Positions 1,873 to 11,349 of a stretch of DNA of 64,000 nucleotides are shown piece after piece; position 1 is the stretch's first letter; every line of letters starts with the position of its first letter. This DNA comes from a phage. The position numbers and the translations under genes were made by a program. The notes under the pieces were generated by a model that made no database searches, had not been told where the DNA came from, and saw only the letters and a list, made by a program, of their open reading frames with translations. The DNA lies in sequence record PZ379075.1, one strand, 5' to 3'.

Positions 1873-2122
1873 AACTATTGCGTTAATTGATACGCATAAT
1901 TACGGTGGCGTTACATTGTCCTTTGATGAATCAGTCGACGCTGGTTATTTGTCTTTTCTTTCTAAAGGTGAGATACAAAACATACGCTTTCCTATTGTCT
2001 GTTTAGTGCAAGATTATCTAACTGTTGGGAAGTATTTAGCCCAACGCGGGATTCTCCTGTCGCTGGAAGAAGTGGAACAGATTAGCGTAGCATTTTTTGG
2101 CGAGAATAGCAACGATGAATAG
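1847..2122 (+). CDS. hypothetical protein (91 aa)
   Basis: ORF translationally coupled to preceding gene. Confidence 0.45.
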   Translation: MGMIPMGNETIALIDTHNYGGVTLSFDESVDAGYLSFLSKGEIQNIRFPIVCLVQDYLTVGKYLAQRGILLSLEEVEQISVAFFGENSNDE

Positions 2123-2217
2123 TGATTATTTTTGGCGTTGCTTGTTTGGTGCGACCTTCCTGCTGTTCATTGCTGATATGCTGTATTCTTACATTCTCTA
2201 ACTAAAGGTTTATTATC

Positions 2218-2583
2218 ATGGGTGTTATCAAGTTTGTAGTGAAAGTATTTGTAGGCTTCTTTCTGGTTGTTCTCCTGTTAGGTGTCCTGCTGTCATCTAT
2301 GGGTAGCGTTAAGGCTGCAACATTCTCCCCTGATACGGTTGACGGTTTACAGTGTACCTATCTCGTAGAGAATTACGAAACTGGTAAACAGTCACCTAAA
2401 GTTATTATTTTGCATGTAAATGATTTTGATCATGTGCAATCAGATAACAAAGCTATTCTGCTGGTAAATGAAACTACCGGTAAACAAATCACGATAGATC
2501 ACTTGATGCGCTCATCGTTGACGCTCTTTGATGAGTCCATGAATGAAATTGAGTCCGGTAATGGTCAATGTGTAAATCCATAG
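2218..2583 (+). CDS. hypothetical membrane-anchored/secreted protein (121 aa)
   Basis: N-terminal hydrophobic stretch VGFFLVVLLLGVLLSSMGSVKA resembling signal anchor; ATG at 2218. Confidence 0.5.
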   Translation: MGVIKFVVKVFVGFFLVVLLLGVLLSSMGSVKAATFSPDTVDGLQCTYLVENYETGKQSPKVIILHVNDFDHVQSDNKAILLVNETTGKQITIDHLMRSSLTLFDESMNEIESGNGQCVNP

Positions 2584-2969
2584 GCTTAATCTTTCTCCTG
2601 TATTGTGCCGTAGTCATGCCTATGGTCATAATCTATCTGATGCTTTAAATCCTTCCTATAAGCCTCGCTATGAGGCTTTTTTCTTTTCTAAGGTGATTGT
2701 ATACCTTACTCCCTTTTAGCTCATTGTGATGCGTTATAGGCCGCTTGTTATCGCTTTACAAGCCTTTTCCTATGATGTATCACGTTCGCCCGCTCTTTTA
2801 CCTTCCTATAGTGAAAAAGTTTAAAATATTTTGTTTTACCCTATTGCATCCCTCACTGATTAATGTATACTTCATTTCATCGGGTACGATGTAAAACATA
2901 CAAGGCAAGGAAACTTGCCCCGCTCTTTAAAAATCAGGCTAGAAAGTGAAAATATTCTTAAAAAGAGTA

Positions 2970-2998
2970 TTGACACCGAAAACAGCCTGATATATAGT
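2970..2998 (+). promoter_or_regulatory. strong sigma70-like promoter (TTGACA - 17 nt - TATAGT)
   Basis: TTGACA at 2970-2975, spacer CCGAAAACAGCCTGATA, TATAGT at 2993-2998. Confidence 0.6.
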
Positions 2999-3602
2999 GA
3001 GCATAGTCAGCGATGACTTAAAAAATCCCGCTCTTTAAAAATATGATTTGTCTTACGGGTGGCGGCGACGTCATTACTATAAGGCGCTCAGTTAATCGGT
3101 AGAATTGATTCCTGATTCATACGTGACGCAGGCGGACAATAAGCAATATCAATAAGCCTTATTTGTTCGATACTTTCAAAAGATTAATGCTTGAAAGCGC
3201 ACTAGATTCCCTGAAAGACAAATCAGACTTATCATCTTGCCCTTTCGCATAGATTCACGCGAGATAAGGGAAAGGAATTAAAAGAAGATGATAAAAAGAG
3301 TTGCAAACGTGGTTAAAGTAGTCCATACTAACCACAAGTTAGCAAAACATCGCTAACTAGTTCCCAAATCAACGTATCGCGGGAAAGGTGGCACATAGTG
3401 CAGCGATTAGTTCAGGTGTAGGCGGCCTGTTAATGAATCAGTAAGCCTTCAATGTGACAGTGATTAGCAGACACTTTAAAAGGCTAAACGCTCTTTAACA
3501 ATATGAGTCATAAGTTAAGCCTCACCGCTTAATCTTCAATCAAATAAAGCTGATTGATATATCCTCCCAATAGCGGGAACGACGAAAAAGATTAAAAAGC
3601 GG

Positions 3603-3631
3603 TTGACAGCGAAAACAACATGATTCATAAT
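3603..3631 (+). promoter_or_regulatory. strong sigma70-like promoter (TTGACA - 17 nt - CATAAT), paralogue of promoter at 2970
   Basis: TTGACA at 3603-3608, spacer GCGAAAACAACATGATT nearly identical to promoter at 2970, -10 CATAAT at 3626-3631. Confidence 0.6.
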
Positions 3632-4552
3632 GAGCACTCACTAAGCAAATCATCGCTTCAGTGAAAAGCGTAACAACGGCTAACAGTTGCATAGTGTGAG
3701 AAAGCACACTGATAGATTTACCGCTCTTTAATAATTTAAACATTCTCCTATATCGGTTGAATATGCTTGATGATAATAACCATCGGAAAGCATACCAGAT
3801 AAAACGGCGTAAAACTCCCTAAATTATCAGGGTAAACAGTTTTACATTCCCTTACTGGAAACGTCACCATTGATAAACGGATTCATTGAGTACACGCAAA
3901 GACTTAAGCTAATCGCCCACGGTTAAGGGTAGCGGCGGTCATCGCTAACATGGTGCTACGGTGAAAGAAGTTAATCAGGGTAGGCAATCCCGACGAATTA
4001 ACGCTCAATTGAGAGCGGCGGTGAATGGTTAAAAAGTGGCAAATTGCTATTTAACAATAAGGTTTAGTGTGAACGTTTACGATGTGAACGGCTTGAGATT
4101 CATCTTATGATGAAAGTACATAGTCGGTTTATGTAGTAAACTTGCCGAAAGATATAAAACGTCGGAACATTAGACGGTCAATGACTCTTTCGCAATAGTA
4201 TCCCGTAGTGGGCGATGACTAGCGATTGAGAGTTGATATAAAAGGATAGGCGAGAGCGAAAGCAAAGTAAACGATATTGCCGACGGTTACAATAACGTAA
4301 CTAATTAGAGTCGGACGCACTGCCTTATTGTGATGATTGATCATCGCTATCAGGTCGGCTTCGTTTATAGCGACTAATTAAAGATACCAGATGAAACATC
4401 ACGGATAAGGGGGCGGCAAGGTTAACTCCTGATAAGACCGCCCCGCTTACCTATAACTACTTACAATGAGTGGTTATAGTTAAGTCAATAGTGACTTGAA
4501 TTGCTCATAGAGAGCGGGGCAATAGCGCCCTTACAATTGAAAGGTGAATATT

Positions 4553-5452
4553 ATGGCTAAAATCTTTACTCTGGTTAACGAATCTGGTTTTAATGCTCTG
4601 GCTAACAATATCCGTAGCAATAATGCAGCGATCAAACAAGATGTTTCTAACTTCCTGTTAGGTCATTTGCAGCACTTTCGTAGCAACGGTAAGAAGTTAG
4701 ATGTATTGCAGGCGGCGGTTGACTTCCTGTTAACCGAACGTTTCCGCGATATGGATGTTATTGCCACCGCGATCACTTTCTTAACTCCTATCAAGTTTAA
4801 CACTGATGCGTCAAATGGTCGTAAGAAGTGGATTAATCTGGAAGGTGAAGCGAAAGCTAAAGAAGATGCGAAAGAAGCGCAAATTAAAGCCAAAATGGAG
4901 CAAAACCGTGCCCGCTGGTCAAACGCTTTCGAAAACTTTGCATTAGGTCGTGCAATTGAAGTGGATAATCCTAACTTCTACAAAGGTTGCAATGACAACG
5001 TGGCGGCACACCTGCAAATTCCGGCGAAAAACAAGGAAGATTTTAATCAGGATATTTACGCTTTGGTTGAACGCTTGAATGCAATCCGTATTGAAGCCAA
5101 ATTACTGGCTGATGAGCGCAACGGCGCAACCAGCGATAACACTATCGCCCTGAGTGAAGAAGTTGGGAAGGTTAAAAAGTCCTTTGATTCACTCATCAAG
5201 AAAATCACGGCCTCGACGGTAGCGATCTCGGATGATTATCTGATGAACGCATCAAGCAAGGAATTAGAATCACTCGATTCATACGCTGATGAAATGGAAA
5301 AGACTGTTGCAGCTATGCAGGAGAAGTTAGAAAGTCTGCGCGGTCGTATCTCTTCAACGGTTGCTACCCGTACCGAACAAGCGGCGAAAGCAGAAGAGGA
5401 AGAAGTATTGCGTAAAGCGGCTGAAATTATGGCGGCACGTCAGGCGGCATAA
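4553..5452 (+). CDS. hypothetical protein with C-terminal coiled-coil character (about 300 aa)
   Basis: ORF 4544-5452; ATG at 4553 preceded by AAAGGTG; charged heptad-like C-terminus. Confidence 0.6.
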   Translation: MAKIFTLVNESGFNALANNIRSNNAAIKQDVSNFLLGHLQHFRSNGKKLDVLQAAVDFLLTERFRDMDVIATAITFLTPIKFNTDASNGRKKWINLEGEAKAKEDAKEAQIKAKMEQNRARWSNAFENFALGRAIEVDNPNFYKGCNDNVAAHLQIPAKNKEDFNQDIYALVERLNAIRIEAKLLADERNGATSDNTIALSEEVGKVKKSFDSLIKKITASTVAISDDYLMNASSKELESLDSYADEMEKTVAAMQEKLESLRGRISSTVATRTEQAAKAEEEEVLRKAAEIMAARQAA

Positions 5453-5476
5453 GTAAGACAATTTGAATAAACATAA

Positions 5477-5509
5477 GGCGCTATCTTAACGGGTAGCGCC
5501 TTTTCTTTT
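5477..5509 (+). terminator. rho-independent terminator
   Basis: GGCGCTA...TAGCGCC stem followed by TTTTCTTTT. Confidence 0.6.
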
Positions 5510-6802: not shown

Positions 6803-6856
6803 AGCCGCCTTTGGGCGGCTTTTTGCGTTACCGCCTCCTTAATTGGAGGCTTTTTT
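6803..6856 (+). terminator. two tandem rho-independent terminators
   Basis: GCCGCC-TTTG-GGCGGC + TTTTT, then GCCTCC-TTAATT-GGAGGC + TTTTTT. Confidence 0.65.
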
Positions 6857-6882
6857 GTATCTATTATATAGGAAACCATGAA

Positions 6883-7695
6883 ATGAAAGCATTTGCATTG
6901 TCAGCTATTCTAGTTTTATCTGCCATTAGTGCCCCATCCTTTGCTCATTCTGACAAATGCTCACACTCTAAACAGTGTGAAGTCCAGCAGGGGCCGAAAG
7001 GTGATAAAGGAGAACAGGGTATTCAAGGCGAACAAGGTCCGAAAGGTGACAAGGGTGATCGCGGAGAGCAGGGCTTAAAAGGTGATACTGGATCGGCTGG
7101 CATCAATGGTAAAGATGGCATCAATGGTAAAGATGGCATTGATGGTAAAGATGGCATTGATGGTAAAGATGGCATCAATGGTAAAGATGGCATCAATGGT
7201 AAAGATGGCATTGATGGTAAAGATGGCATTGATGGTAAAGATGGCGCTCAAGGTGAAAAAGGTGATTCTGGTGCAGATGGTAAGAAAGGCGAAACTGGCC
7301 TAACTGGTGCAGCAGGTTTGAATGGCGTTGACGGATTAAATGGCAAAAATGGTAAAGATGCAGATATGTCTGCCGTTAATGCTAACGCCAAATCTATCAA
7401 AGCTCTGGAACAATCCACCAACAAACGTTTTGCTTCTTTGCAAAAACAAGTAGACCGTAACCGTGATCATGCCTCTGCTGGTATTTCTGGCGTGGCTGCA
7501 ATGGCTAACATCCCGCAAGTAAGTCAAGGATCTGCTTTCTCTGTTGGTGCTGGGGTAGGTGCTTACGATGGTGAATCTGCTCTTGCTATTGGTGTTAGTG
7601 CTCGTTTCAATGAAAACGTAGTAACTAAAGCATCAGTGGCAATGACTTCAGAGAGTGACGCTGTTCTGGGCGCTGGTGTAAGTTACGAGTGGTAA
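6883..7695 (+). CDS. secreted collagen-like repeat protein with YadA-like (trimeric autotransporter) C-terminal membrane anchor
   Basis: Signal peptide MKAFALSAILVLSAISAPSFA; about 50 Gly-X-Y triplets; C-terminal segment ending GAGVSYEW matches YadA-anchor beta-barrel signature. Confidence 0.65.
   Translation: MKAFALSAILVLSAISAPSFAHSDKCSHSKQCEVQQGPKGDKGEQGIQGEQGPKGDKGDRGEQGLKGDTGSAGINGKDGINGKDGIDGKDGIDGKDGINGKDGINGKDGIDGKDGIDGKDGAQGEKGDSGADGKKGETGLTGAAGLNGVDGLNGKNGKDADMSAVNANAKSIKALEQSTNKRFASLQKQVDRNRDHASAGISGVAAMANIPQVSQGSAFSVGAGVGAYDGESALAIGVSARFNENVVTKASVAMTSESDAVLGAGVSYEW
7100..7243 (+). repeat. Tandem 18-bp repeat GGCAT(C/T)(A/G)ATGGTAAAGAT x8 (encodes GI(N/D)GKD collagen units)
   Basis: Direct reading; causes spurious antisense ORFs 7023-7229 and 7082-7303. 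Confidence 0.85.
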
Positions 7696-11273: not shown

Positions 11274-11349
11274 GCGCTCTTAGCTCAATGGATAGAGCAG
11301 TAGCCTTCTAAGCTATTGGTTACAGGTTCGAGTCCTGTAGGGCGCACCA
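11274..11349 (+). tRNA. tRNA-Arg (anticodon TCT)
   Basis: Hand-folded cloverleaf: acceptor GCGCTCT/AGGGCGC, D-stem GCTC/GAGC, anticodon loop CTTCTAA with TCT at 11307-11309, T-arm ACAGG-TTCGAGT-CCTGT, discriminator A, encoded CCA. Confidence 0.85.

Follow-up and report, generated by a model that had tools for sequence, protein, structure and literature searches.

Consensus boxA copies ahead of a large conserved RNA in the early spacer of a phiEco32-like phage: a putative mimic of the host rrn leader

The leader of the ribosomal RNA (rrn) operons of Escherichia coli carries the signals boxB, boxA and boxC, and the associated antitermination complex, rrnTAC, contains NusA, NusB, NusE, NusG, SuhB and S4. 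In this study, we describe the gene-free spacer at positions 2590–4540 of a 64,000-nucleotide (nt) stretch of phage DNA (PZ379075.1), the whole of which is called the window throughout. We consider it fairly likely that this spacer is an rrn-mimicking, untranslated early transcription unit, in which consensus boxA copies stand behind strong predicted promoters and in front of a large structured RNA. The phage seems to copy the design of the host ribosomal RNA (rRNA) operon for its earliest transcripts, and its closest functional analogues would be the host rrn leader and the early leader of phage T7.

The source phage is a phiEco32-like podophage (Gordonclarkvirinae, Kuravirus), and 2590–4540 is 99.9% identical to the corresponding region of Shigella phage ShigP1 and 99.3% identical to that of the BASEL phage Bas90. 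The region is an already-known, unannotated “spacer” between genes 125 and 124, which in phiEco32 forms a 1.9-kilobase (kb) gap ~3 kb from the right genome end, with early transcription running leftwards from there; 98 phage records match it, most of them without any annotation at this place. The paper on phage SU10 named it “spacer region”, described the first operon as preceded by one promoter and followed by a terminator, and located three sigma70 promoters within the spacer itself, “like phiEco32” (PMC4281155). An undefined antitermination strategy has been postulated for the related phage 7-11 (PMC8948821). The searchable literature, beyond which two key phiEco32 papers lie, yielded no paper on promoter-proximal boxA for virulent phages or for phiEco32, and the BASEL and svsR papers hold nothing on the spacer.

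The first-pass annotation had drawn attention to a four-copy motif in this region, although it did not recognise in it the boxA of rrn and lambda. The motif, CGCTCTTTAA, is found exactly at 2921, 3029, 3489 and 3722, always on the + strand, and nowhere else in the 64 kb as an exact copy; when one mismatch is allowed, 12 matches are counted against 4.5 ± 2.1 in shuffled sequences, none of 100 shuffles reaching 12. Judged from its sequence, it is boxA, the rrn-type antitermination signal and NusB/NusE loading site of rrn operons. The gamma-proteobacterial BoxA consensus, derived from rrn and suhB, is GYTCTTTAANA (PMC5725501). This pattern matches the window exactly four times, at the four copies and on the transcribed strand, compared with 0.61 matches in shuffles (0 of 100 reach four). 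The copies are boxA1 (2921–2933) and boxA2 (3029–3041), both reading CGCTCTTTAAAAA, boxA3 (3489–3501, CGCTCTTTAACAA) and boxA4 (3722–3734, CGCTCTTTAATAA). The boxA region of the E. coli MG1655 rrnB leader reads TGCTCTTTAACAATTTATCA; boxA3 shares 13 identical bases with it (GCTCTTTAACAAT), and copies of the relatives SU7, NC-B and Bas86 share 18–19. By analogy with the host systems, this identification shifts the reading from an unknown motif to a probable recruitment of host Nus factors, and it explains why copies sit just downstream of promoters.

A degenerate boxA-like word, TGCTATTTAACAA, is located at 4045–4057 on the + strand, overlapping the 5′ strand of the closing helix of an RNA domain (D2) described below. 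Within it, GCTATTTAACA agrees with 10 of the 11 consensus positions, the deviation being C4 changed to A, a position reported as critical. The word is nearly invariant, with one C/T change (position 4055) in TH34 and TH42, the two most distant of 16 aligned relatives; it might represent a boxA that is weak or has decayed, reminiscent of the second one that rrn operons carry in the 16S–23S spacer.

Across 21 relatives belonging to three genera, a search with the 9-nt core as criterion yielded 87 boxA copies, 3–5 per spacer and 4–5 in all phages except one (20/21). Positions not forced by this criterion are kept as well: A stands at +10 in 87/87 copies and at +11 in 86/87, while C at −1 and T at +12 are each present in 77, and the consensus from the 87 copies, C-GCTCTTTAA-N-AAT, is the rrn form. 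The upstream flanks are mosaic and often unrelated between phages, and the word is always kept, a pattern indicating that boxA is maintained by purifying selection while its flanks diverge. Genome-wide counts were taken from phiEco32, SU7, TH34 and PJNS034, the last being an unrelated 65.7-kb coliphage. In the whole genomes of phiEco32, SU7 and PJNS034, matches of the GCTCTTTAA type are confined to the spacer, and a reversed control pattern is found nowhere in these three and once in TH34.

Two sigma70 consensus promoters had been proposed at 2970 and 3603, and both are borne out, each with 11 of 12 hexamer positions. P1 (2949–2998, +) consists of an A/T-rich upstream tract followed by TTGACA-17-TATAGT (hexamers 2970–2998), with a predicted start at ~3005; P2 (3584–3631, +) has the same layout with TTGACA-17-CATAAT (hexamers 3603–3631) and a predicted start at ~3638. 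Their near-identical spacers, also noted at first reading, are real: TTGACA(C/G)CGAAAACA is common to both, with 82% identity over 34 nt, and the likeness covers the −35 hexamer, the spacer and the initial transcribed bases, which makes P2 a paralogue of P1. The two rank in the top three promoter matches of the first 8 kb, and P2 is conserved in 21/21 relatives. Wherever a promoter reaches 10/12 or more in the 21 spacers, a boxA lies downstream of it, 19–150 nt from the predicted start; in PJNS034, this is the case for one of two such promoters, with boxA at +10. The first-pass annotation had placed some copies at +30 to +95 of the transcripts. This comes close to the mark for boxA2 (~+26 from P1) and boxA4 (~+86 from P2). 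BoxA3 has no strong promoter directly upstream, and before boxA1 no strong promoter stands back to the terminator of the preceding operon. The phiEco32-type relatives carry TTGACA-16-TAATAT ~120 nt upstream of boxA1. Two weaker candidates in the window, read by eye at 2844 (3/6 + 5/6) and 3302 (4/6 + 4/6), fall below the scan threshold and are not claimed as promoters.

Hairpins accompany several of the copies on their 5′ side. Directly 5′ of boxA1, in the position of rrn boxB, GGCAAG-GAAA-CTTGCC (2904–2919, +), a hairpin with a GNRA tetraloop, can be read from the sequence; the hairpin scan listed it on the opposite strand, and it is present in relatives with the same left arm. The 5′ end of the predicted P1 transcript would form AGTCA-GCGA-TGACT (3005–3018, +), whose stem covaries in relatives (ATTCA/TGAAT, GGTCA/TGACC) around a constant GCGA loop. 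Two further leader hairpins occupy 3674–3710 (+), upstream of boxA4; the second, pairing 3693–3698 with 3705–3710, appears among phages as AGTGTG/CACACT, AACGTG/CACGTT, GAAGTG/CACTTC and GAGGTG/CACCTC. The order hairpin, then boxA is the order of rrn (boxB, then boxA); two of the hairpins have GNRA loops, and stems covary between phages.

On the other side, each boxA directly precedes a folded RNA module according to predicted folds (M1, M2 and D1, and D2 in the case of the degenerate copy). M1 is a folded domain of ~180 nt (3044–3225, +), closed by TGATTTGTCTT/AAGACAAATCA, and its closing helix begins three bases after boxA2. Among Kuraviruses it behaves as a clean 186-nt presence/absence indel, as in the group of relatives with 91% coverage; phages without it have boxA2 immediately against the helix that closes the next hairpin. 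Two metatranscriptome contigs skip exactly this module (3040–3227). M1 is also found in the unrelated PJNS034, again behind a boxA, with 75% identity, and both its closing helix and inner helices differ between the two versions by compensatory changes. M2 (3229–3480, +) is a predicted series of hairpins, e.g., 3229–3238 with 3285–3294. Only 5 of its 111 predicted pairs show compensatory changes in seven sequences, a sparse covariation that is explained by the fact that only close relatives have M2.

PJNS034 (PP391266) itself has a 1.8-kb gene-free gap (2000–3822 of its locus) between its terminase genes and rightward genes, with consensus sigma70 promoters, perfect boxA copies at 3002 and 3210, the M1 copy, and a boxA-like ACTCTTTAACAA at ~3546.

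The evidence for a large conserved RNA comes from the tail of the spacer. From the last boxA to the start of gene 124, its length is 826–835 nt in 20 of the 21 phages, at 75–99% identity. The tail was aligned from sequence only with MAFFT and folded with RNAalifold, with two kinds of controls, namely 3′ partners slid by 1–3 columns and forty column-shuffled alignments. The consensus comprises 240–243 pairs, of which 98.9% of cells are canonical and 79 pairs carry double compensatory changes, compared with 34–46% canonical cells and 9–12 compensatory pairs in the slid controls. The RNAalifold energy is −246.5 kcal/mol, against −93.1 ± 6.7 in the column-shuffled alignments (z = −22.9), and refolded shuffles reach a mean of 9.3 compensatory pairs and a maximum of 17. 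These data show that the predicted structure of the large RNA is under selection. The sole length outlier of the 21 is phage LAMP, with a tail of 865 nt vs. ~830 nt; part of its D2 (aligned to ~4147–4200 of the window) is replaced by an unrelated, longer segment.

Within the tail, domain D1 (3735–4033, +) is closed by 3735–3748 with 4020–4033 and contains a long irregular helix (3863–3893 with 3953–3985). BoxA4 lies directly 5′ of the closing helix, one base from its end to the helix. Domain D2 (4054–4331, +) is closed by ACAATAAGGT/GCCTTATTGT, and its inner helices show compensatory changes in 8/12 pairs of 4089–4126 and in 6/6 pairs of 4141–4146 with 4249–4254. A 3′ series of eight hairpins (4332–4531, +) extends up to the Shine-Dalgarno sequence of gene 124, and includes GGGGCGG...CCGCCCC (4410–4444), with five compensatory pairs and an invariant 21-nt loop. 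The Shine-Dalgarno sequence (AAAGGTGA) and the ATG (4553) of the gene-124 homologue (4540–4555, +) mark the first early gene after the leader. In addition, 3716–3726, which comprise the bases immediately before boxA4 and its beginning, could base-pair with 4539–4549 in the Shine-Dalgarno region; this pairing, predicted and without covariation, would enclose the whole 800-nt RNA like a leader-trailer helix, and TH34 and TH42 keep a perfect GGTAAAT/ATTTACC complement in a different register. If formed, it suggests translational control of gene 124.

Conservation, the lack of a conserved open reading frame (ORF) and the very strong base-pair covariation together uphold the earlier suggestion of early noncoding RNA. 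Known RNA families gave no counterpart. The covariance-model search that the first-pass annotation had proposed brought no match in the spacer with the 4227 families of Rfam 15, among them GOLLD, ROOL, 6S, RNase P, tmRNA, introns and riboswitches, at the gathering threshold, and at E-values up to 10 it returned six chance-level matches, each below half its threshold. ARAGORN detected no transfer RNA (tRNA) or transfer-messenger RNA in the spacer, and 2900–4552 has no homologue in 5,426 E. coli genomes.

Taking the host systems as a guide, the following mechanism can be proposed. Strong predicted sigma70 promoters with A/T-rich upstream tracts would fire on the incoming phage DNA, and each transcript would carry a consensus boxA within its first 20–150 nt (26 and 86 nt in the window). 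As inferred from rrn and lambda biology, boxA would bind NusB–NusE(S10) and, with NusA, NusG and SuhB, convert the host RNA polymerase to a fast, Rho-resistant form. Such protection would be needed because the next 0.8–1.5 kb are untranslated and otherwise an ideal Rho target. The polymerase would thereby be carried into gene 124 and the long early operon. The same complex may also hold boxA at the polymerase, so that the 5′ helix strand right behind boxA could pair with its 3′ partner as the latter emerges; a boxA–Nus–polymerase loop probably aids the formation of long-range helices during transcription, as has been proposed for the 16S leader-trailer helix, and the position of boxA beside each closing helix fits such a chaperone role. 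Transcription-driven genome entry occurs in T7, and read-through may also matter for entry here. The modules would constitute a conserved structured RNA, with ~800 nt following P2 and ~1.5 kb following P1; this RNA could be a stable noncoding species released by processing, or else a 5′ leader of gene 124 with a regulatory and protective role.

Several observations weigh against this proposal. P1, P2 and their transcription starts are predictions from sequence, and boxA1 and boxA3 are the two copies lacking a strong promoter of their own in this genome. The 5′ hairpins are unlike rrn boxB in sequence, and no boxC-like (GU-rich) element was seen in the sequence. Complexes of the rrn type read through intrinsic terminators poorly, and the early operon contains three strong terminator-like hairpins on the + strand (5475–5502, 6803–6820 and 6833–6850), which follow the homologues of genes 124 and 120; at the position of the first, SU7 annotates a terminator and then a promoter. 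Expression gives a weak hint that the spacer RNA is more abundant than the flanking genes: contigs from two wastewater RNA libraries cover 3029–4391 and 2929–4104 at depths of 48 and 20, compared with ~4–9 for the flanking genes, and a probable DNA library has flat depth across the region, but the runs were chosen for holding the 2590–4540 stretch and are biased, and their contigs are unable to show transcript ends, so the contrast is suggestive only. D1 and D2 have not been found outside Gordonclarkvirinae, either by a scan of IMG/VR for the invariant D2 21-mer or with nhmmer against 120 other phage loci: the scan returned only five contigs, all of known Kuravirus type and hence no new diversity, and profiles of D1, D2, the 3′ hairpins and M1 recovered only the known M1 of PJNS034. 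It has also been reported that Nus factors are not strictly required against Rho in rrn operons, their effect being context-dependent, and that they can even promote termination at suhB (PMC5725501).

The strongest rival, in our estimate an unlikely one, is that the spacer RNA is a sponge for NusB/NusE. Four to five boxA copies per transcript, made in bulk from very strong promoters, would mainly titrate NusB–S10 off the host rrn operons. This would amount to a host shut-off, with the synthesis of rRNA and the assembly of ribosomes crippled, and the structured RNA would do no more than stabilise the sponge. The presence of several boxA copies per spacer, some without their own promoter, would suit this explanation, as would the strong promoters with rrn-like upstream A-tracts and the hint of high abundance in the RNA libraries; Friedman and colleagues reportedly found in 1990 that multicopy consensus boxA transcripts titrate NusB in E. 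coli. It does not, however, account for the abutment of boxA on each module's closing helix or for 800 nt of structure conserved at constant length. A single boxA suffices for T7, and the effect of rRNA depletion is slow relative to a short infection. The sponge leaves the conserved architecture unexplained; the promoter/terminator decoy of the first-pass annotation, to which this titration is related, has no support as it was stated.

It is rather improbable that the copies are nut sites of the lambda type, at which boxA and hairpin would be read by a phage-encoded, N-like antiterminator, with full read-through of intrinsic terminators in the early operon. The GNRA-type loops (GAAA, GCGA) of the hairpins beside boxA, the terminator-like hairpins inside the early operon, and the fact that most early genes have no known function are consistent with such a protein. 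The arrangement is nevertheless hairpin then boxA as in rrn, whereas lambda has boxA then boxB, and what follows boxA on its 3′ side is the helix that closes a large domain. The hairpins vary in sequence from copy to copy and from phage to phage, and they therefore offer no common protein site. The very first transcripts predate any phage protein, and the boxA has the full rrn consensus in place of the weakened lambda form.

We regard a function at the level of DNA, in which the spacer would serve as an origin of replication, for packaging or as an array of protein-binding sites and its RNA would be incidental, as very improbable. Such an element might well look like this spacer, which is large, free of genes, close to a genome end and furnished with repeated words and promoters, and transcription-activated origins exist in T7 and T4. 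But the compensatory base-pair changes show selection on RNA and not on DNA, all boxA copies lie on one strand and are non-palindromic, and the spacer has no DnaA boxes, AT-rich dip, skew switch or other iterons.

With regard to coding capacity, the earlier statement that no + strand ORF of at least 60 amino acids exists holds true, the longest inside 2590–4540 having 49 (2745–2894), and 3652–4552 contains no + strand ORF of at least 25. One ORF of 67 amino acids lies on the − strand (3540–3743); it varies from 16 to 70 amino acids among the relatives, and − strand ORFs are intact in only 5–16 of the 21. That the spacer encodes unannotated small proteins, as was also suggested at first reading, has scarcely any likelihood: EK5, CHD5UKE1 and other records annotate ORFs of 30–40 amino acids in it and the 67-residue ORF could be counted in its favour, yet no reading frame is kept open across the relatives, none of at least 25 amino acids lies on the + strand of the conserved tail, and substitutions track base pairing.

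As to the surroundings, an intrinsic terminator-like hairpin with a T-run (2660–2686, +) ends the upstream operon, which consists of homologues of genes 128–125; a terminator is annotated at the equivalent position in SU10, 4E8 and SU7, and the one in SU10 has been described (PMC4281155). PHROGs assigned to the nine neighbouring genes only function-unknown entries or unreliable names. In SU7, a coding sequence of 66 amino acids (SU7_114, 2579–2779 of its locus) is annotated between the first boxA and the next promoter; a small coding sequence at this position is also present in Bas86, NC-B and TH34, which have Suseptimavirus-type spacers, and is absent from the window. Further along, a gene with collagen-like Gly-X-Y repeats (6811–7695) is a homologue of phiEco32 gp119, annotated as ‘agglutinating adhesin’, and it draws unrelated metagenome contigs at high depth. 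A tRNA-Arg(TCT) at 11274–11349 is the sole match of Rfam or ARAGORN in the window.

Promoter-proximal boxA is not restricted to this phage group. A pattern scan of IMG/VR returned more than 119 contigs, 27 of them with 2–4 copies on the same strand. Four promoter-boxA units lie in the terminal repeat of the T5-like Proteus phage Stubb, near A1/A2 (loci L082 and L138), and three at the left end of Pseudomonas phage Achelous (L061 and L066). Several 44-kb contigs hold three promoter-proximal rrn-type boxA units each. Together with T7, where there is one, these cases place such units at the leading ends of other virulent phages, and the principle seems widespread.

A bolder extension of the rrn-like reading, offered here tentatively and with less than even confidence, is that of a Kuravirus ‘pseudo-rRNA operon’. 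The first act of the phage would be to equip the polymerase with the host's complex for rRNA antitermination and chaperoning, thereby making and folding a modular RNA of 0.8–1.5 kb that belongs to a new family; its mobile modules, such as M1, would pass between unrelated phages, and the RNA might act in trans in host takeover or counter-defence. An rrn-type boxA close to a promoter at the leading genome end would, more broadly, be a rule so far overlooked that holds generally for virulent phages beginning with the host polymerase (T7, T5-like phages, Kuravirus and Pseudomonas podophages).

The rrn-like reading gives a concrete and testable answer to how phiEco32-like phages may keep the host polymerase moving across kilobases of RNA that is not translated and then along an extended early operon: by borrowing the host's rRNA antitermination signal, with no phage protein needed. 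A large and new structured phage RNA, whose covariation support is exceptional, is defined as well, and phages of this group are represented in the BASEL collection and usable for E. coli K-12 genetics. If this RNA has its own function, it would rank among the rare examples of large functional RNAs from virulent coliphages. From the occurrence of boxA after early promoters of T7, a T5-like phage and others, it would seem that early phage transcription generally depends on Nus factors and that this dependence can be exploited, with a bearing on host range, phage engineering and the design of strong, Rho-proof expression leaders.

Among the known systems, GOLLD, ROOL and similar Rfam families resemble the spacer RNA in being phage-encoded, several hundred nt long, multi-domain and strongly covarying; they differ from it in that no covariance model matches and in that the RNA of the window stands at the 5′ end of an early operon and is led by boxA, a feature undescribed for those families. 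Common to the spacer and to the nut sites of lambda and P22 are a hairpin and, next to it, a boxA core placed soon after an early promoter for the recruitment of NusB/NusE. In the window, however, the hairpin is 5′ of boxA and the boxA has the full rrn consensus, no phage protein is yet present when boxA would first act, and no N gene is known in this virulent phage, for which no search was aimed at N-like genes.

The early leader of T7 is a closer parallel. T7 is likewise a virulent podophage that uses the host polymerase for its first transcripts, from tandem strong promoters at the leading end, and its record contains a perfect boxA, CGCTCTTTAACAATCTGG, at nt 812–823, 63 nt downstream of where A3 starts (750) and ahead of gene 0.3 (925). 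As in the spacer, a perfect boxA precedes a structured RNA element (the RNase III site R0.3) and the first gene. T7 has one boxA, after A1, A2 and A3, in a leader of ~100 nt, whereas the window has a boxA for each promoter and a conserved multi-domain RNA leader of 0.8–1.5 kb.

The E. coli rrn leader has in common with the spacer tandem strong sigma70 promoters with A/T-rich upstream tracts (in rrn, P1 and P2 with UP elements), a hairpin and then a consensus boxA, with up to 19 identical bases, within the first 20–150 nt, a long, untranslated and highly structured RNA downstream, and the placement of boxA beside the 5′ strand of long-range closing helices, comparable to the 16S leader-trailer helix. 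The rrn operons have one boxA in the leader and one in the 16S–23S spacer, compared with four to five in the phage spacers; the phage hairpins are unrelated to rrn boxB, with no boxC seen; and the phage product is not rRNA, has no E. coli homologue and is followed by a protein-coding early operon. What makes this locus distinctive is the combination of one boxA per promoter, four to five copies in all, and the coupling of each to a module of a large new structured RNA.

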